Assembly: GCA_965261085.1 (NCBI GenBank)
Contig: OZ253442.1
Location: 3,328,001-3,392,000, forward strand
Direction: 5' to 3'
Length of the DNA stretch: 64,000 bases
From: a bacterium
Lineage (GTDB): Bacteria > UBA8248
Below the pieces are notes generated by a model, which had not been told where the DNA came from, ran no database searches, and saw only the letters and a program-made list of their open reading frames with translations. Made by a program: the position numbers and the translations under genes. The first letter of the stretch is position 1, and each line of letters starts with the position of its first letter. Positions 66 through 42,088 of this stretch are shown in pieces.

Positions 66-73
66 GAATTATC
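66..73. repeat. 8-bp target site duplication, left copy (GAATTATC)
   Basis: Identical GAATTATC at 66-73 and 3143-3150, directly outside the inverted repeats. Confidence 0.9.
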
Positions 74-91
74 CGTGATTATGCACTTGAC
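74..91. repeat. terminal inverted repeat, element 1
   Basis: CGTGATTATGCACTTGAC vs reverse complement of 3125-3142 CGCGATTATGCACTTGAC. Confidence 0.9.
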
Positions 92-115
92 TAACCTTGG
101 CCCAACATGTAGTGT
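87..115 (+). promoter_or_regulatory. TIR-embedded promoter for passenger ORF 122 (probably leaderless)
   Basis: TTGACT-17bp-TAGTGT; the ATG at 122 begins 7 nt after the -10 and has no SD. Confidence 0.45.
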
Positions 116-121
116 CGTGGC

Positions 122-586
122 ATGTGGATACATATTCGCCTCACCCTCTGGTTTGGTTTTGCGTATGTTGTCGAAAGGGCGGCTGCCGTAATGTGGCCAG
201 AAGCGTCCATTTCTACATGGCTGACATTAGCCGCCATGTTCGTCATTGTGATTATAGTCGGTAATTATTGGCAGAGCGTCTCGGAAAAATATACTTGGAA
301 CTGGGGCCGTAAAGAACCGGATAATTTTTGGAACAACGTGGAGAAAGCAAATATCATCGCCAGAACAATCTATGCCGGAGAGAACTCTTTACTTCAATCA
401 AGGCGAACGGAAACCATCCTTACCGCACAGGAGACGATAAATGACATCCGCCAGCAAATGTCGGTGAAAGGATATATGGATATGCCTGATCCGATTGACG
501 TCGATCCTACGGGCAAGGATTGTTTGGTTGCCTTCAAGGCCTGGTACAAATACTTAAGTAAATTCCGAGCGAGACGAGGCCGATGA
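122..586 (+). CDS. hypothetical membrane protein (two N-terminal hydrophobic segments), IS passenger
   Basis: 154-aa ORF with hydrophobic N-terminus and soluble C-terminus; fills the space between TIR and the convergent lipoprotein gene. Confidence 0.65.
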   Translation: MWIHIRLTLWFGFAYVVERAAAVMWPEASISTWLTLAAMFVIVIIVGNYWQSVSEKYTWNWGRKEPDNFWNNVEKANIIARTIYAGENSLLQSRRTETILTAQETINDIRQQMSVKGYMDMPDPIDVDPTGKDCLVAFKAWYKYLSKFRARRGR

Positions 587-624
587 GAAAACGACCAATT
601 CCCCATCGGCCTCGCCCTTCACGA

Positions 625-1524
625 TTACCGCCGCGCCCCAAACGCGCCTGCTACCTCGTCGCGGATGAATACGCCACCCACTTCTTCGTGATTCGGGCCA
701 TAGAAGCGGCCCGTGAGCGAGTTGAAGCCATCACCCCGGTCTGCAAATGCAACGCCCACGGACAGATCGCCGTTATGGTCAAATGCTCCATTTCTCACGG
801 GCATATTGCTCCAAGACATGCTGGCTCGCCTCTCGTTCGTCGTTTGGTCAACGAGATTCGTGAACGAGACGCTGGCCGATGGATTGCTGAAATTGCTGAT
901 GCCGACCATGGCGTCGCCGATAATGACGTTGCCCTTGTCGTCCGTCTCGCTCGCATCGACACCAACGACGGCCCCGCGCCAAGTCGCGCTACCGGATATG
1001 GGGTTCGTGCCGGTCGCGTTTCCGACCGAGAATACGTCCGCGAAAACCTGCTCGGAAGGGTCGAGCGGATCATTGTCCATGGGATTCCATACGGCGAGAA
1101 GAAAGAAGCTGTGATCCATCCATCCGCCATAATCGAAGGCGTTTCCGGTGACGCCCCTGCTATGGGTTCCGGCCAGGGGGACTTCATGTCGGGTTTCGAG
1201 GCGTTGAAGGGCGCCGCCGCGCCGAGTCATGTCCGAGAGGTCAAGGTTCGTGGGAGTGGGCTGGGTTATTCTGGTGCTCCAGATATCCGCATTGATCGTG
1301 TTGGATTTGATCACGACGGTGGAAGCGTCGATCAGGCCATTCATGATTTCTCTCACCGCCCGAGGTTCAGGAGCAGGAGCGACTGGTGGTTGCTGTGGAG
1401 GCTCTCCGCCACCGGGCATTACCGGTGGAGTGGCTGGAACAGGAACACTCGATTTCTTGCCTCCACCACCACAACCTGCAATCAGAATTGCTACGAAGAG
1501 GCTCAGTACGATGTTCTTGATCAT
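625..1524 (-). CDS. surface lipoprotein with transferrin-binding-protein-like (TbpB-type) beta-barrel, IS passenger
   Basis: Lipobox IAGC-GGGG, Pro-rich linker, SATWRG and C-terminal GRFYGPNHEEVGGVF...GAFGA motifs. Confidence 0.75.
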   Translation of the reverse strand: MIKNIVLSLFVAILIAGCGGGGKKSSVPVPATPPVMPGGGEPPQQPPVAPAPEPRAVREIMNGLIDASTVVIKSNTINADIWSTRITQPTPTNLDLSDMTRRGGALQRLETRHEVPLAGTHSRGVTGNAFDYGGWMDHSFFLLAVWNPMDNDPLDPSEQVFADVFSVGNATGTNPISGSATWRGAVVGVDASETDDKGNVIIGDAMVGISNFSNPSASVSFTNLVDQTTNERRASMSWSNMPVRNGAFDHNGDLSVGVAFADRGDGFNSLTGRFYGPNHEEVGGVFIRDEVAGAFGARR

Positions 1525-1577
1525 GGAAGTATCCACCTCTATGGCGATATCCCGACCTCCCAGCGAGGCCGGGCCTT

Positions 1578-1709
1578 ATCACCATCACAGAGAAAAGTGA
1601 AGTCCCGCCTATTCACCTTTTGTCCGGGTAGCGAACCCGGAATCGGTGCAAGGCTGTTGTATTCAGCGAGCGACCCGACTCAGAAAGCAGGTCCCTCTGC
1701 GATGGTGAT
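1578..1709 (-). ncRNA. candidate structured leader RNA (closed multibranch) upstream of the lipoprotein gene
   Basis: 15-bp closing stem (1709-1695 with 1592-1578; one G-U pair on minus strand only), three internal hairpins, promoter directly upstream. Confidence 0.55.
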
Positions 1710-1715
1710 GAATGG

Positions 1716-1745
1716 AGTGTGCCGCGTTTTATCCGGTAACGTCAA
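1716..1745 (-). promoter_or_regulatory. sigma70-like promoter for the leader RNA and lipoprotein
   Basis: TTGACG-18bp-CACACT; predicted start ~1709 is the first base of the closing stem. Confidence 0.45.
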
Positions 1746-1783
1746 GGAGAATGTTCAAAAAGGGGTGTTCAAATATATATTCA

Positions 1784-1849
1784 ATGGGTGGCCCCACCCG
1801 CACCACTTCTGGGGAGAAATGGTGATTCCTGGCGAGTGGGGCCACCTAT
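1784..1849. repeat. long inverted repeat/hairpin in the IS interior
   Basis: GGTGGCCCCAC (1787-1797) / GTGGGGCCACC (1836-1846) enclosing CACCA-TTCT/AGAA-TGGTG. Confidence 0.6.
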
Positions 1850-1939
1850 CAGATTCTTTGCTGCGGCTACAATGGGGTCATCGCGCCTCATTCACATCAC
1901 CCCCTCTCGGATCGGGCGGGATAGACGCACTTTCCCTGC

Positions 1940-2037
1940 TTGACAAAGGTGCTCGGTATTTTGTAGGGTGGGGTTATTCGGATTTTTCACCCTTCAAGTC
2001 CCGAGCCGCCAGCGCCAACTGGCGGTTTACCTTTTCT
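1940..2037 (+). ncRNA. candidate small counter-transcribed RNA with its promoter
   Basis: TTGACA-18bp-TAGGGT, then hairpin GAGCCGCCAG-CGCCAA-CTGGCGGTTT (G-U pairs on plus strand) and a T-rich tail. Confidence 0.4.
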
Positions 2038-2043
2038 GGCAGT

Positions 2044-2931
2044 CTACGCTACCAGCTTCTTGTACTCAAGAGGTTTCGTGTTCACGATTCGCTTGAGCGT
2101 GTCGTTGAAAATGTAGTGGTTCTTGCGGTTGTTGTATCGCCATTCAAGCTCATCGAGATAGCGATCCATGTGCTTGACGCTCATCTTGTGGAACGCGCCC
2201 GTGAGCGAACGCTTGAACAGCGACCACACGCCCTCGATGCTGTTCGTATGGACATCACCCACGACCCATTCTTCCTCGGAGTGGTTCACGGTTTCATGGC
2301 GCGTGTCGCTGTCCTCAATGCCGATATAGGATTTGAGTTCATCCGTGTAAATGGCTTCGGCCTCATCCCGGATGGTGCGCTGGATGAAGTCGTGGAGCGT
2401 GTTCTTCTTGATGTTCGGAATTCGCTCAAGACGCACCTTGCCGCCGCGCTGGATGGCTCCCGCGACCCATTGCTTGTTCTTCTTGTAGCCCTTGCCTTTG
2501 CCCTTCGCCTTGCCGCCCACGAGCGTTTCATCGACTTCCACGACGCCCACAAGGGTGGGGCCGGAAAAAGGCTCGTTTCCCATGGCCTCGCGGATGCGGT
2601 GGCACAGGTACCACGCCGTGCGATAGGCCACGCCAAGCGTTCTCTGCATCTGGCAAGCGGAGATACCCTTCTTGGATTCACACATGAGATAGATGGCGAG
2701 AAACCACTTACGCAGGGGCAGGTGGGAATCATGCATAATGGTGCCCGATGTAACGCTGAACTGGTAATCACAGGACTTACACTTCCAGCGGTTGTGTTTT
2801 TCCAAATCCAGCACGTCCATATCGCCGCACCTGGTGCAACACACACCCGCAGGCCAGCGAATATCCTGCAACATCTTGCGGCAGGTATCATCGCAGTTGA
2901 ACTTATCAATCAAGTGCATGAGGTTCACCAT
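2044..2931 (-). CDS. tnp: IS1595-family transposase
   Basis: RWPAG..CTRC..CKSC..FSVTSGT Zn ribbon, EVDET, YTDE, VNHS, HTNSIEG.WSLFKR motifs; SD AGGAGG. Confidence 0.95.
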   Translation of the reverse strand: MVNLMHLIDKFNCDDTCRKMLQDIRWPAGVCCTRCGDMDVLDLEKHNRWKCKSCDYQFSVTSGTIMHDSHLPLRKWFLAIYLMCESKKGISACQMQRTLGVAYRTAWYLCHRIREAMGNEPFSGPTLVGVVEVDETLVGGKAKGKGKGYKKNKQWVAGAIQRGGKVRLERIPNIKKNTLHDFIQRTIRDEAEAIYTDELKSYIGIEDSDTRHETVNHSEEEWVVGDVHTNSIEGVWSLFKRSLTGAFHKMSVKHMDRYLDELEWRYNNRKNHYIFNDTLKRIVNTKPLEYKKLVA

Positions 2932-3097
2932 GGCTCAAAAGCCTCCTGGTAAGGGAAAACTCCCGAAGGACGCGCTCAAGCGGCCTGGGCGCGAACTCAT
3001 GGAGCATATATTCGGAACCACGATCATGAAAGAGGTGGACAAACTGACGCCCGACAAATCAAAAGACGATGAAAGTGATGATGAGGTATCCATATGA
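2930..3097 (+). CDS. small 55-aa ORF divergent from the transposase, start codons overlapping in CATG
   Basis: SD GAGGT; MAQKPPGKGKLPKDALKRPGRELMEHIFG... Confidence 0.45.
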   Translation: MAQKPPGKGKLPKDALKRPGRELMEHIFGTTIMKEVDKLTPDKSKDDESDDEVSI

Positions 3098-3100
3098 GGA

Positions 3101-3129
3101 AATATACATCTTGTGGCTCAGTTTGTCAA
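3101..3129 (-). promoter_or_regulatory. transposase promoter with -35 inside the TIR
   Basis: TTGACA-17bp-TATATT. Confidence 0.65.
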
Positions 3130-3142
3130 GTGCATAATCGCG
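3125..3142. repeat. terminal inverted repeat, element 1
   Basis: GTCAAGTGCATAATCGCG. Confidence 0.9.
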
Positions 3143-3150
3143 GAATTATC
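3143..3150. repeat. 8-bp target site duplication, right copy
   Basis: GAATTATC identical to 66-73. Confidence 0.9.
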
Positions 3151-39367: not shown

Positions 39368-39393
39368 GCATGTATCACATAGGGGGATACAAG

Positions 39394-40346
39394 ATGGCGC
39401 AGAAGGCACCCGGCAAGGCATTCAGGAAGGGAATCACGATAATCGAACTGGCGCAGATGTTCCCGAACGAGGAAGCGGCTCGCAAGTGGTTCGAGGAAAT
39501 CATCTGGCCGGACGGATTGAGGTATTGCCCTGAGTGCGGAAGCGTCGATACGCACGAGTGCCAGCACGCCAAGATGCCGTACAGGTGCCGCGACTGCCGA
39601 AAGTATTTCAGCGTCAAGACCGGAACCGTGATGACGGGTTCTCCCGTTCCCCTGCTCAAGTGGCTCTACGCGATCTACCTGGACGTTACGTCGCTCAAGG
39701 GCGTTTCGAGCATGAAACTGCACCGCGATATCGGCGTCACGCAAAAGACCGCGTGGCACATGCAACAGCGCATCCGCGAGGCGTTCCGGGAGGAAGGCGG
39801 TCTGCTTTCCGGCCCGGTCGAAATCGACGAAACCTACGTGGGCGGCCTGAAAAGAAAAAGCACGGAAACAAGCGGCGTCGGGCCGGTCGCGGAGGAACCG
39901 GAAAGGATATCGTGGTCGGCATCAAGGACAGGGCCACGAACGAAATCCGCGCCAAGGTCGTGCCCGACACAAAGAAGGAAACGCTACACACGTTCATCGC
40001 CGAGAACGTGGCCGAGGGAGCCGAGAAGTTCACGGACGAGAATCGTTCGTATCGAGGACTCGACAACCACAGGGCCGTGAATCACAGCCTCGGTAAATGG
40101 GTCGATGAAATGGCCCACACGAACGGCTTGGAGTCGTTTTGGGCGATGTTCAAGAAAGGATTCCACGGCACGTTTCACCGCATGAGCCCGGCTCACCTTC
40201 ACCGCTACATCACGGAATTTGCCGGTAGACACAACATAAGATCTCTTGATACCATCGAACAGATGAAGCGGTTGGCCGAAGGGATGCGTGGAAGGCATCT
40301 TCCCTATAGTGATTTGGTGTCCGGTAATGAAAACAGCTATTCGTGA
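39394..40346 (+). pseudogene. tnp: IS1595-family transposase with a 1-nt frameshift near 39850
   Basis: CPEC..CRDC..FSVKTGT and EIDETY in the first frame; TDE, VNHS, HTNGLESFW in the second; break at CTGAAAAGAAAAAG. Confidence 0.88.
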
Positions 40347-40623
40347 AAATCCTCCTGATCGGTCTCGTGAAGCTCAGGGGCCATCACGTGCGAAACAACA
40401 GCCTCGGCCATCATCTTCATATTCCAAACGACTTCAGGAGCTAATTCCCAAGGATGTTCTGGAACTGAAACGGCGTCTATCCGATTCTGAATACCGTCAG
40501 TTACTTCTAAAGCAAGGTCCAAACCCTTATCGGGCGAATGTCTCCGAATGTTGCGAAGCGCTAAAGCGAGCAGGAGAAGAAACTTGTTTACGCTTTCTTC
40601 GTGGGGATTTTGAGCAGGCATAG
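40327..40623 (+). CDS. hypothetical protein overlapping the transposase 3' end
   Basis: 98-aa ORF followed by a hairpin; no recognisable motif. Confidence 0.4.
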   Translation: MKTAIRENPPDRSREAQGPSRAKQQPRPSSSYSKRLQELIPKDVLELKRRLSDSEYRQLLLKQGPNPYRANVSECCEALKRAGEETCLRFLRGDFEQA

Positions 40624-40653
40624 ATTCGTCCTTCCTTTCTAGGGGTTGGGCGC

Positions 40654-40690
40654 AAAAATACGGCGCTGGGCCTCATCACCCAGCGCCGTT
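40654..40690 (-). terminator. intrinsic terminator of the cargo operon
   Basis: CGGCGCTGGG/CCCAGCGCCG 10-bp stem with a T-rich tail on the minus strand. Confidence 0.7.
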
Positions 40691-40696
40691 GTCGTG

Positions 40697-40843
40697 CTAT
40701 TGCGAGCGTCCAGTCATCCAGCAGAAGATACCATAAACGGCACTTCCCATGCAGATCACGGCAAACAGGATGATCGTCCAGACGAAATCACCTACGAATT
40801 GAAATAAGCTCCATGCCGTGGCGCCTAGAATGTAATCAATCAT
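40697..40843 (-). CDS. 48-aa hydrophobic membrane peptide, IS passenger (not in ORF track)
   Basis: MIDYILGATAWSLFQFVGDFVWTIILFAVICMGSAVYGIFCWMTGRSQ; G-rich SD; fills the gap to the terminator. Confidence 0.55.
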   Translation of the reverse strand: MIDYILGATAWSLFQFVGDFVWTIILFAVICMGSAVYGIFCWMTGRSQ

Positions 40844-40853
40844 CCGCCACCCC

Positions 40854-41351
40854 CTATCGCCCCAGTGATTTTAGTTCGTTCAGGCAGGCGCGGCTGTATT
40901 TGTGACATCCCGTCTGGAAGTAGTAGTTCTTATCGAGCGCGCGGTTTCCGCGCTCCAGTTCTTTGACCTTCCATTCGGGCATCCTGAACCCGCGCGTGTA
41001 CGGTTGGGTCCCGTAGGGGTCGGAAGGGTTGTGTTGTTGGGCGCGTTGTCTCATTTCGCGGAGAGCATTTTGTAGGGCCTGCTGGCGCTGTATCTGTTGT
41101 TGCCTGAGCGCATGGAGGCGTTGCTCGAGGGTCTGCACTCCGCTTTGCCGCGCGGGCGAGTTAAGCGTCGGAAGCGAACCGAGCCCCGATGGCGTCCGGT
41201 ATTGGTGTCCTTGGTTCTGCTGGGGCTGGTATCCACCACCATATAGCGGGCTTCCGCCTTGAGGAAGTTGCGTGTACGGGACGGACTGCGCGGCCGCGGC
41301 CACCGGAAACGACAGAATCAGAAACAGAACTCCTATCTTTATGTGCTTCAT
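40854..41351 (-). CDS. secreted Gln/Pro/Gly-rich protein with coiled coil, IS passenger
   Basis: SD AAGGAG; signal peptide MKHIKIG...AAAA-Q; QQQIQRQQ helix; two C-terminal Cys. Confidence 0.7.
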   Translation of the reverse strand: MKHIKIGVLFLILSFPVAAAAQSVPYTQLPQGGSPLYGGGYQPQQNQGHQYRTPSGLGSLPTLNSPARQSGVQTLEQRLHALRQQQIQRQQALQNALREMRQRAQQHNPSDPYGTQPYTRGFRMPEWKVKELERGNRALDKNYYFQTGCHKYSRACLNELKSLGR

Positions 41352-41362
41352 GGTTTTTCTCC

Positions 41363-41506
41363 TTAATGACAGTGATAGCCGACCCGGACGCCATTGACCC
41401 AGACGTAATGGCATCCACTAAAATTCGTTCCGCCACTGTGCGCGGCCACGATGACTGGCGACAAGAGCGCACCAATGAGAAGCGACACGAGGATTGCGTT
41501 TTGCAT
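41363..41506 (-). CDS. 47-aa secreted YHYH-like (HSGGT..GCH..YHCH) microprotein, IS passenger (not in ORF track)
   Basis: SD GGAGG; MQNAILVSLLIGALLSPVIVAA-HSGGTNFSGCHYVWVNGVRVGYHCH. Confidence 0.75.
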   Translation of the reverse strand: MQNAILVSLLIGALLSPVIVAAHSGGTNFSGCHYVWVNGVRVGYHCH

Positions 41507-41541
41507 GGGGTTTCCCTCCGTTCATGAATGGCCGGTAAAGG

Positions 41542-41650
41542 TTGAGATTGAACGGTAGGATATGATAATCAAGGTATTGCAACGCGTTGTAGTGTGACTT
41601 ACCCCACCACAAGGAGGTCTCGGTTGCCGCCGAGGCCTCCTCACTTTTTT
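41542..41650 (+). ncRNA. candidate small counter-transcribed RNA with promoter and terminator
   Basis: TTGAGA-16bp-GATAAT; hairpin AGGAGGTCTCGG-TTGCCG-CCGAGGCCTCCT followed by T6. Confidence 0.45.
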
Positions 41651-41654
41651 GTGC

Positions 41655-41790
41655 AAAAATGACAACCGGCAGTCCGGGCCGGTTGTCACGCACTCCACTG
41701 GATAGGTGGGTTCCCGCGTATTCCCTCGTAATCGAGGTGTTTTATTTCGCGGGCGACCCGAAGGGCCTGCCCCAGCGAATCACGTGACAA
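41655..41790 (-). ncRNA. candidate attenuator/riboswitch-like leader of the cargo operon
   Basis: Long irregular hairpin whose closing 3' arm overlaps a perfect 11-bp terminator stem (41660-41688) with a U5 tail. Confidence 0.55.
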
Positions 41791-41795
41791 TCGGA

Positions 41796-41870
41796 AATAT
41801 GCTACCTTGCAGGAAATCTGTCAAGGTGCACACAAAGGGTCTTGACGTAACATGAGGCAATCGGGATAAT
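41796..41870. promoter_or_regulatory. back-to-back divergent sigma70-like promoters
   Basis: Minus: TTGACA(41824-41819)-17bp-CATATT; plus: TTGACG(41842-41847)-17bp-GATAAT. Confidence 0.6.
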
Positions 41871-41899
41871 GGCTGACCCTGAACGGAGGACACCAATCC

Positions 41900-42088
41900 A
41901 TGGCCACTAAAAAATGTGAAATATGCGGATCTAAACATTTTGAAGAAGTCAAGCAACATACGTTTTGTTTCAAATGTGGTGCCCGCGAAAGCGCCATTAT
42001 TAAGGATCTTCATCCATTGGCTTGGCAAAAGCGTATAAGTGCCACTAGAACACCGCGACCGACAAAAAAGGTGCGAAATGGACGCTGA
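41900..42088 (+). CDS. small zinc-ribbon protein, IS passenger
   Basis: CEICG...CFKCG; SD GGAGG. Confidence 0.65.
   Translation: MATKKCEICGSKHFEEVKQHTFCFKCGARESAIIKDLHPLAWQKRISATRTPRPTKKVRNGR

Follow-up and report, generated by a model that had tools for sequence, protein, structure and literature searches.

What is the strongly folded stretch that precedes a TbpB-like lipoprotein gene in a bacterium of the UBA8248 lineage, and what might it do there? We analysed 64,000 nucleotides of this genome (GenBank assembly GCA_965261085.1, contig OZ253442.1, positions 3,328,001 to 3,392,000 of the forward strand; this whole stretch is called the window). An initial annotation, made from the letters alone, had described a cloverleaf-like leader RNA at 1540-1745 on the minus strand and proposed an orphan riboswitch or a processed regulator resembling phage P1 C4 or P4 CI RNA. 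The structured RNA is a real feature with a strongly conserved fold. Judged by its sequence and its relatives, minus-strand 1551-1709 is probably the 5' leader of the lipoprotein messenger RNA (mRNA) and a divergent, extended member of the sRNA-Xcc1 (RF02221) superfamily of small RNAs (sRNAs).

The closing stem described in the annotation, 15 bp that pair fully on the minus strand only, through one G-U, was recovered as a 15-nucleotide (nt) inverted repeat (1578-1592 and 1695-1709) that is 93% complementary, the minus-strand G-U being the sole exception. With its flanking pairs this helix, termed S1, extends to 18 bp (1709-1692 with 1595-1578, -28.5 kcal/mol). The proposed comparison with shuffled sequence came out in favour of the fold: the 206-nt minus-strand segment 1540-1745 had a minimum free energy (MFE) of -83.6 kcal/mol, compared with -64.45 ± 4.12 kcal/mol for 200 dinucleotide shuffles (z = -4.65), and none of the shuffles was equally stable. 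The plus strand of the same segment gave a z of -3.38; we therefore regard the fold as real, with the minus strand favoured. In relatives of the leader, one pair of a second long-range helix (P0) was U-G in 52 of 65 sequences, and the S1 pairs included 118 G-U pairs against 9 A-C mismatches. The structure thus functions on a single strand. The parts of the promoter and the leader are as follows.

1716-1745, minus strand: putative sigma-70-type promoter, with the -35 hexamer TTGACG at 1745-1740, an 18-nt spacer and the -10 hexamer CACACT at 1721-1716
1692-1709, minus strand: S1a, the 5' arm of closing stem S1, forming 18 bp with S1b
1688-1693, minus strand: seg1 (GACCUG), a local competitor that can form a small hairpin with seg2/P0a and is paired in the MFE structure
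1672-1679, minus strand: P0a, or seg2 (GUCGGGUC), the 5' strand of long-range helix P0, nearly invariant family-wide
1604-1670, minus strand: P2 domain, with invariant columns in alignments of 71 and 67 sequences
1670-1666 and 1608-1604, minus strand: P2 helix CUCGC/GCGGG
1665-1655 and 1614-1609, minus strand: invariant asymmetric internal loop of P2, UGAAUACAACA and GAAUAG
1654-1652 and 1617-1615, minus strand: P2 helix GCC/GGU
1641-1623, minus strand: P2c, a variable hairpin (UCCGGGU/ACCCGGA) that recurs in relatives
1578-1595, minus strand: S1b, the 3' arm of S1 and pivot strand, which pairs with S1a and has the ribosome-binding region as its alternative partner
1568-1575, minus strand: P0b, or seg3 (GGCCCGGC), the 3' strand of P0 and also the 5' arm of seg3:seg4
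1551-1573, minus strand: seg3:seg4 hairpin (CCCGGCCUC/GAGGUCGGG), present in the MFE structure and mutually exclusive with P0
1522-1550, minus strand: ribosome-binding region, with the S1a-like AUAUCGCCAUAGAGGU at 1550-1535, the Shine-Dalgarno sequence GAGGUGG and the likely start codon ATG at 1524-1522

The transcript is predicted to start a few bases 5' of S1a. The letters TTGACG-18-CACACT, taken as the promoter in the annotation, are present, but were not flagged by a generic promoter scan because the -10 hexamer matches at just three of six positions. Support for the promoter comes from the relatives instead: TTGAC is conserved at the equal -35 position in those of the same genus, and 37 of 71 relatives have their best sigma-70-like hexamer pair ending 5-11 nt 5' of the first S1 pair. 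At the other end of the leader, the hairpin noted before the ribosome-binding site (1573-1551) is present and recurs in relatives. We took ATG 1524-1522 as the start because MIKNIVLSLFVAILIAGC is a lipoprotein signal peptide; the list of open reading frames (ORFs) starts the gene at GTG 1536 instead. By its letters, S1a resembles the downstream ribosome-binding region and may be a decoy for it.

How widely is this structure found? By DNA similarity, no locus besides the leader itself was recovered from its own genome, 17 partial matches came from 8 of 22 other genomes of the genus, and 38 more distant genomes gave no match. A degenerate 27-letter core pattern matched 85 stretches in contigs taken from one genome per species, where we estimate that about two would be expected by chance. 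These carried labels of Alpha- and Gammaproteobacteria, Nitrospirales, Acidobacteria, Gemmatimonadota and Acidimicrobiia, as well as Limisphaerales, Rhodothermales, Latescibacterota, Caldilineaceae and Entotheonella, several of them sponge-associated. The pattern matches and the same-genus loci made 98 instances, from which 16 exact duplicates and one instance at a contig edge were removed, leaving 81 distinct copies. The RNA thus has conserved relatives, with at least 81 distinct copies from many phyla. Leaving out 10 copies without the 3' half gave the 71-sequence alignment (A1), and leaving out a further four with long insertions gave the 67-sequence alignment (A2), the source of a covariance model (R1). 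With R1, seven copies were found in the window's own genome, one of them in the window itself (41668-41764, minus strand); the six copies other than the leader were found by the covariance model and not by DNA similarity. R1 also detected 1-10 copies per genome in 20 of the 22 other same-genus genomes, none in 19 genomes of other genera of the family, and matches in 2 of 7 genomes of another family of the class. Overall, 23 of the 101 genomes searched, own included, carried a match and the rest none, and blastn against plasmid and phage collections returned no match to the stretch.

Comparison of these copies supported a defined structure. The same-genus alignment has an invariant core, GUCGGG..CUCGCUGAAUACAACAGCC..GGYGAAUAGGCGRG..GGCCCGGC, and a closing stem that varies on both sides with its pairing kept. 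In A2, the structure composed of P0, P2a, P2b and P2c was paired in 91.1% of cells, compared with 84.4% in column shuffles, none of 500 of which reached the observed value; a control with partner columns slid by 1-3 positions gave at most 50%, and A1 gave an equal picture. P0, with the consensus GUCGGGYYR/YRRCCCGGC, was 95% paired. It covaried at its inner pairs, of which one occurred as CG 26, UG 22, GC 9 and UA 7 and the next as GC 31, AU 11 and UA 4. P2a was 99% paired, with one pair occurring as GC 40, CG 9, GU 8 and AU 6, and P2c covaried at every pair. S1 had to be tested sequence by sequence because MAFFT could not align it across phyla. In the 71 relatives the mean S1 duplex energy was -29.2 kcal/mol within the own sequence and -14.5 kcal/mol across sequences, and 58 of the 71 fell below the 5th percentile of the control. 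The median helix had 19 pairs, and the opposite strand gave -27.8 kcal/mol. Among 11 same-genus sequences, compensatory changes were seen at 12 of 14 S1 pairs, and 98.3% of cells were paired, a value that none of 500 shuffles attained.

The cloverleaf survived in part. Its hairpin TCCGGG-TTCGCTA-CCCGGA (1641-1623) recurs in the relatives, but the other two inner hairpins, GCUG-AAUACAA-CAGC and AAAAGGUGAA...UUCACUUUU, had no comparative support, with 65.4% of cells paired against 64.7% in shuffled columns and 84 of 500 shuffles reaching the observed value (65 distinct relatives). The nucleotides of these two rejected hairpins, the first and third of the cloverleaf, instead form P2 (CUCGC/GCGGG and GCC/GGU), its invariant loop, and P0.

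Several of the segments compete for partners. Energies of -6 kcal/mol or below were found for seg1:seg2 in 69 of 71 relatives (means -10.4 for own, -9.1 for cross-sequence and -7.8 kcal/mol for shuffled) and for the equivalent of seg3:seg4 in 68 of 71, both hairpins being better than the cross-sequence and shuffled controls; P0 was present in all 71. The order S1a-P0a-S1b-P0b makes S1 and P0 a pseudoknot-type pair. The leader thus combines, in the manner of a riboswitch, a conserved core, covarying helices, invariant unpaired nucleotides and alternative pairings. As a general terminator, seg3:seg4 was rejected: a U-rich tail follows in 6 of 71 relatives and not at the window copy, and terminator-like sites occur in 5 of 71.

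To which family does this RNA belong? As the annotation had held, it is a structured leader of the lipoprotein gene that fits no known riboswitch class; no Rfam 15 family matched at its gathering score anywhere in the window. In a relaxed Rfam scan of 1300-2100 (expectation value E up to 10), 1559-1680 aligned to sRNA-Xcc1 (RF02221) with 16.5 bits and an E of 7.4, far from the gathering cut-off of 53 bits, and the other matches were at chance level. In this alignment, P0 and the AAUACAA/GAAUA loop were in register. An RF02221 search of the own genome gave no match. On six short-form copies, which have no P2 hairpin and include Sphingomonas, Novosphingobium, Croceicoccus and Sphingorhabdus, RF02221 scored 40-46 bits (E 6e-5 to 1e-3), again below the cut-off. 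The reciprocal search was run on loci found by RF02221 in a 151-genome sample of one class, with the loci of two genomes flagged as unpublished left out. R1 matched 12 of these 17 loci at equal coordinates with 26.7-41.1 bits; 14 of the 17 exceed the 53-bit cut-off, and nine genomes of the sample do so, a tally that includes one of the left-out genomes. On these sequence grounds, we conclude that the leader is a member of the sRNA-Xcc1 superfamily, outside the curated RF02221 family. It is therefore not the orphan that it had been taken for, but part of a superfamily and transposon cargo. The leader has no local P3 hairpin because S1b, the strand in question, is engaged with the transcript's 5' end.

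Catalogues have listed sRNA-Xcc1 since 2010-2011 as a small RNA without an established mechanism. By its title, Chen et al. 2011 reportedly treats it as trans-acting, and the paper may already cover structure or homologues relevant to the novelty of the present form. In Xanthomonas campestris it was described as a discrete RNA, a Northern band of about 100 nt with mapped ends and a length of 88 nt (PMC2996969, in part), and it sits upstream of symE in integron cassettes according to bioRxiv 10.1101/2025.06.18.660453. Other reported locations besides integron cassettes are Xylella islands and APSE phages. The portions of the sRNA-Xcc1 literature covered here mention neither a long form nor a leader role beyond the position upstream of symE, and literature searches on an IS1595-linked RNA motif and on the conserved loop word returned nothing relevant. 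SymE-like ORFs follow 2 of 12 inspected sRNA-Xcc1 loci (L124 and L112). At L111, L112, L119, L124 and other RF02221 loci, a hairpin with a U7 run lies between an upstream complement of the P3 strand and the core, 10-25 nt before the latter, a three-part layout of which we found no description in the same portions of that literature. Within the window's own genome, at G000:C1:1672770-1673140 (L106), a near-duplicate of the S1a segment of leader copy c6 lies 137-163 nt downstream of that copy and is followed by a seemingly degenerate second core, which suggests tandem units; an arrangement of five spaced sRNA-Xcc1 homologues in Xylella, described in PMC12189769, is comparable.

The leader and its gene lie within a mobile unit, whose features are listed here.

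67-3149, no strand assigned: mobile unit of the IS1595 family, 3.07 kb, with target duplication and terminal inverted repeats
67-72 and 3144-3149: target duplication AATTAT, 6 bp
73-111 and 3105-3143: terminal inverted repeats, a 40-nt repeat that is 80% complementary
2044-2931, minus strand: IS1595-family transposase gene, 295 aa (Pfam DDE_Tnp_IS1595 1.3e-37 and Zn_ribbon_IS1595 3.6e-10)
625-1524, minus strand: cargo lipoprotein gene, 299 aa, with lipobox LIAGC and a TbpB-type C-terminal beta-barrel
611-593: terminator-like site 3' of the lipoprotein gene
122-586, plus strand: ORF of 154 aa with hydrophobic segments, inside the transposon and convergent with the lipoprotein gene; no Pfam or NCBIfam family matched

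Because the inverted repeats are flanked by AATTAT, the whole 3.07-kb unit, enclosing the transposase gene, the promoter and leader, the lipoprotein gene and the 154-aa ORF, was transposed as one piece. The usual target duplication of the IS1595 family is 8 bp, compared with 6 bp here. The transposase is of the DDE type with an N-terminal zinc ribbon and matched NCBIfam transpos_IS1595 with 213.6 bits (cut-off 75). The cargo protein matched Pfam TbpB_B_D with 28.2 bits (cut-off 26) over residues 267-303 only; its match to the NCBIfam Slam-dependent surface lipoprotein model (27.2 bits) was below the cut-off of 80. Between the transposase stop codon and the leader promoter, an 18-nt inverted repeat that is 89% complementary (1784-1849, minus strand) forms a long hairpin followed by a U-rich stretch, and this hairpin is probably the terminator of the transposase gene. 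With terminator-like sites 3' of both the transposase and the lipoprotein gene, the cargo looks like its own transcription unit. We are inclined to see promoter, leader and cargo gene as one portable expression module, carried as a passenger of the IS1595-family transposon at 67-3149.

Other copies are found in similar surroundings. An IS1595-family transposase was encoded within the fetched flanking DNA of 26 of the 81 distinct copies, in two layouts, either upstream on the same strand or convergent beyond the cargo, and four of the seven copies in the own genome adjoin an IS1595-type transposase gene. That genome also holds a 75%-identical IS1595-type insertion sequence (IS) copy with a matching terminal repeat (G000:C1:1113537-1115200). 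The view that the leader is an obligatory part of the IS was rejected, since in this copy no leader precedes the cargo. Examination of leader copies yielded a likely downstream ORF for 52. By a strict rule, 35 of these ORFs have a signal-like hydrophobic N-terminus, 12 of them with a lipobox, and by eye about ten more have a signal-like N-terminus. The few Pfam matches of the cargo (OMP beta-barrel, SLH, LRR, PEGA, Ig-like, collagen-like, inverse autotransporter and trypsin-like) are nearly all surface or exported types, with a glycosyltransferase as the exception. Lipoproteins that are 27-43% identical to the C-terminal part of the TbpB-like cargo are encoded near leader copies at L014, L037, L055 and L008; they lie directly downstream of the leader in the first three, of which L037 and L055 are labelled as alphaproteobacterial metagenome-assembled genomes. 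The window itself contains a second module (39370-42000), with a TTGACA promoter and the leader copy at 41668-41764 (minus strand, 45 bits with R1), whose S1b/P0b strand forms the hairpin GACAACCGG/CCGGUUGUC, then U5. A 47-aa secreted-peptide ORF (41505-41362) and a secreted protein of 165-186 aa (to 40854) follow, and a convergent IS1595-type transposase is split over two frames (39370-40080 and 39534-40346, plus strand).

How could such a leader work? Much depends on S1b. In the 12 sRNA-Xcc1 loci detected by R1, the strand equivalent to S1b is complementary both to an upstream segment and to the ribosome-binding region, with own means of -21.0 and -17.6 kcal/mol compared with -14.5 and -12.2 kcal/mol across sequences (p = 1e-4 and 5e-5, respectively). 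The two partners are near-duplicates of each other, ending in ..AGGCGG and ..AGGAG. Among the 71 relatives of the leader, pairing of S1b with the ribosome-binding region exceeded the 5% control in 12 (p = 0.0014), in some as 20 bp over the Shine-Dalgarno sequence. When S1a was removed from the window copy, the MFE structure folded S1b onto the ribosome-binding region. In the second copy of the window, S1b/P0b is the 5' arm of a terminator-like hairpin followed by U5, and terminator-like sites built on S1b/P0b were found in 5 of 71 relatives. In these respects the likeness to P1 C4 and P4 CI put forward in the annotation is apt as a working logic, both for S1b with S1a and, in the 12 of 71 relatives and the 12-locus set, for the downstream site. 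It does not extend to family membership: the C4 antisense RNA family (RF01695) was absent both from the window-wide scan at gathering score and from the relaxed scan of 1300-2100 (E up to 10).

We favour, with some reserve, a leader that acts in cis and controls its own cargo through the partner choice of S1b, with the P0/P2 core as a sensor or processing signal and a default state of ON. S1, the 18-bp stem, would join the extreme 5' end of the transcript to a strand 100 nt downstream. S1b would act as a pivot, held by the 5' decoy S1a or paired with the ribosome-binding region, and in some copies would form a terminator with downstream sequence instead; in each case the leader would act in cis on its own cargo. 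The frozen P0/P2 core would decide between these pairings, either by binding a universal ligand or protein, or by directing a processing step that takes S1a off, after the fashion of P4 CI and P1 C4. As long as the transcript is full-length, S1a would prevail, which would make ON the default state. For the window copy, the step in which S1b covers the ribosome-binding site is doubtful. More tentatively still, the sRNA-Xcc1 superfamily, long form included, might be a portable device for controlling cargo expression, spread across phyla by mobile elements. In that case each copy would have a private S1b address matched to its own S1a and its own ribosome-binding site or terminator, and a universally readable P0/P2 core, which would either sense some ubiquitous ligand or be the target of a universal RNase, RNase P for instance.

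Several observations weigh against the cis-acting account. Pairing of S1b with the ribosome-binding region showed no excess in 59 of the 71 relatives, most copies in the own genome do not have it, and in the window copy the duplex of S1b with 1550-1535 (-14.9 kcal/mol) was no better than the cross-sequence mean of -15.9 kcal/mol. S1a:S1b is far stronger than any alternative, so a purely thermodynamic switch is unlikely. S1 and P0 may either form together, as a pseudoknot, or be mutually exclusive. Export, and not a metabolic theme, is all that the cargo genes have in common, so no ligand is indicated, and the 75%-identical IS copy has a convergent 179-aa secreted-protein cargo with no leader in front; the leader is therefore dispensable for the transposon. 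The title of Chen et al. 2011 reportedly presents sRNA-Xcc1 as trans-acting, and this best-studied relative is, in the part of PMC2996969 cited above, a discrete 88-nt RNA.

The same discrete band is the starting point of the main rival, a processed, trans-capable small RNA in the style of C4/CI or of a type I antitoxin, which we consider possible if rather unlikely. The P0a-P0b core would be cut from the leader, for example by RNase P at the acceptor-like P0 stem, and accumulate stably. S1b would then act on other transcripts of its module by repressing their matching ribosome-binding site, and S1a would mask S1b in the precursor only. Besides the band with its mapped ends, the position of sRNA-Xcc1 upstream of symE, the SymE-like ORFs at 2 of 12 loci and the strand that is complementary both upstream and downstream in the 12 genuine sRNA-Xcc1 loci are in line with such a pathway. 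In A2 (columns 143-146), 50 of 67 relatives have NCC directly after P0b and 33 of 67 have NCCA, resembling the 3' end after a tRNA acceptor stem. CI and C4 are substrates of RNase P, and the substrate 3' end pairs with the L15 loop of the enzyme (PMC5499578, in part); CI, which is cut from a leader, pairs with seqA upstream and seqC downstream (PMC4825925, in part). However, NCC follows P0b in 0 of 11 same-genus copies, the window copy included, RF01695 did not match, and the pairing of S1b with the downstream site at -14.9 kcal/mol is not above chance in the window copy. The private S1 sequence of each copy would moreover limit action in trans to the own module.

A constitutive element, whose 5' stem and compact core would do no more than lend stability to the mRNA or shield the cargo from its genomic neighbourhood, allowing a transposon-borne gene to be expressed in many hosts without any switching, is improbable in our judgement. 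It would suit the very stable S1 at the predicted 5' end of the transcript, which leaves the ribosome-binding region free in the MFE structure, as well as the spread of the module over many phyla and a cargo without a common metabolic theme. A stabiliser, though, needs neither 20-odd invariant loop nucleotides nor four mutually exclusive segments kept in 68-71 of 71 relatives, and S1b-based terminators or ribosome-binding-site pairing occur in some copies. For a general trans-acting sRNA that reaches unlinked host targets through the conserved single-stranded loop, we see very little probability. The reported title speaks for it, as do the target predictions for Xylella homologues given in PMC12189769, but the own genome shows no excess of complements to the conserved first loop (44 ten-base sites compared with about 41 expected), the element moves between phyla with differing host targets, and a same-strand ORF follows it. 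Least credible of all is an element acting as DNA, such as a protein-binding inverted repeat or a recombination site of the transposon, or a chance palindrome. The plus-strand fold also beats shuffles and the opposite-strand S1 duplex is almost as stable, which speaks for this reading; the frequent G-U pairs, in contrast, are functional on one strand only, the invariant nucleotides lie in loops and not in repeat arms, the structure is inside the transposon and not at its ends, and a related IS copy does without it. A chance palindrome is excluded by the covariation.

The sRNA-Xcc1 core thus also exists in a longer form, which falls below the Rfam cut-off, is spread over many phyla, appears to be built into the 5' end of mRNAs for exported and surface proteins, and rides on IS1595-family transposons. 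We regard this leader-type form as a new variant of a poorly understood kind of RNA, one that is widespread, mobile and structurally elaborate. For the family, a concrete hypothesis open to mutational testing is provided by three covarying elements: the upstream decoy, the pivot strand, and the ribosome-binding site or terminator. If the core is indeed a sensor or processing signal, this would explain how mobile cargo genes carry host-independent regulation with them, and would also offer a way into surface-protein variation among uncultured bacteria that are apparently host-associated. Should the idea of a portable controller hold, no host-specific factor would be needed for a copy on a transposon, cassette or phage to control the cargo it travels with, and the RNA would represent a class of regulatory RNA, or of riboswitch, that is new and particular to mobile DNA.

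How does the leader compare with known systems? The Brt RNAs of Bartonella are highly expressed, about 200 nt long and located directly upstream of poorly transcribed genes, and Tu et al. 2016 proposed that they act both as sRNA and as cis-acting riboswitch (PMC5387305, in part). Compared by description only, they differ in their downstream genes, which code for DNA-binding proteins and not for exported proteins. With riboswitches and attenuators the leader shares its place in the 5' untranslated region, covarying helices around invariant loop and junction nucleotides, and mutually exclusive pairings; as in riboswitches, the expression platform varies among copies, with a terminator in some and ribosome-binding-site pairing in others. 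Unlike riboswitches, it matches no described class, gives no ligand lead from gene content, and is carried on transposons across phyla.

P1 C4 has an a1/b1 and a2/b2 layout. With P4 CI and the C4 RNAs of P1 and P7 the leader shares its working logic, that of an operon-leader RNA in which one strand has a clear upstream complement, here S1a, and in some relatives a downstream one, and half of its relatives have an acceptor-like stem with a CCA-like tail. Unlike them, it has no sequence or structure match to RF01695, its context is a transposon and not phage immunity, and the downstream pairing is not significant in the window copy.

The closest comparison is with sRNA-Xcc1 itself. The window copy differs in a 35-nt hairpin inserted in P2 and in having no local third hairpin P3, as S1b instead has its partner at the 5' end, just 12 nt upstream of P0a; at genuine sRNA-Xcc1 loci, in contrast, a U-run hairpin separates the upstream complement from the core. 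It also has no NCC after P0b, and its cargo is an exported lipoprotein, compared with SymE-like or other small proteins without an obvious signal peptide. What the two share is the closing helix G-CGGG/CCCG-C, the P2 helix with equal internal-loop letters (AAUACAA-A/GAAUA), a strand between P2 and P0b that is complementary to upstream and downstream sequences, and a mobile-element context.

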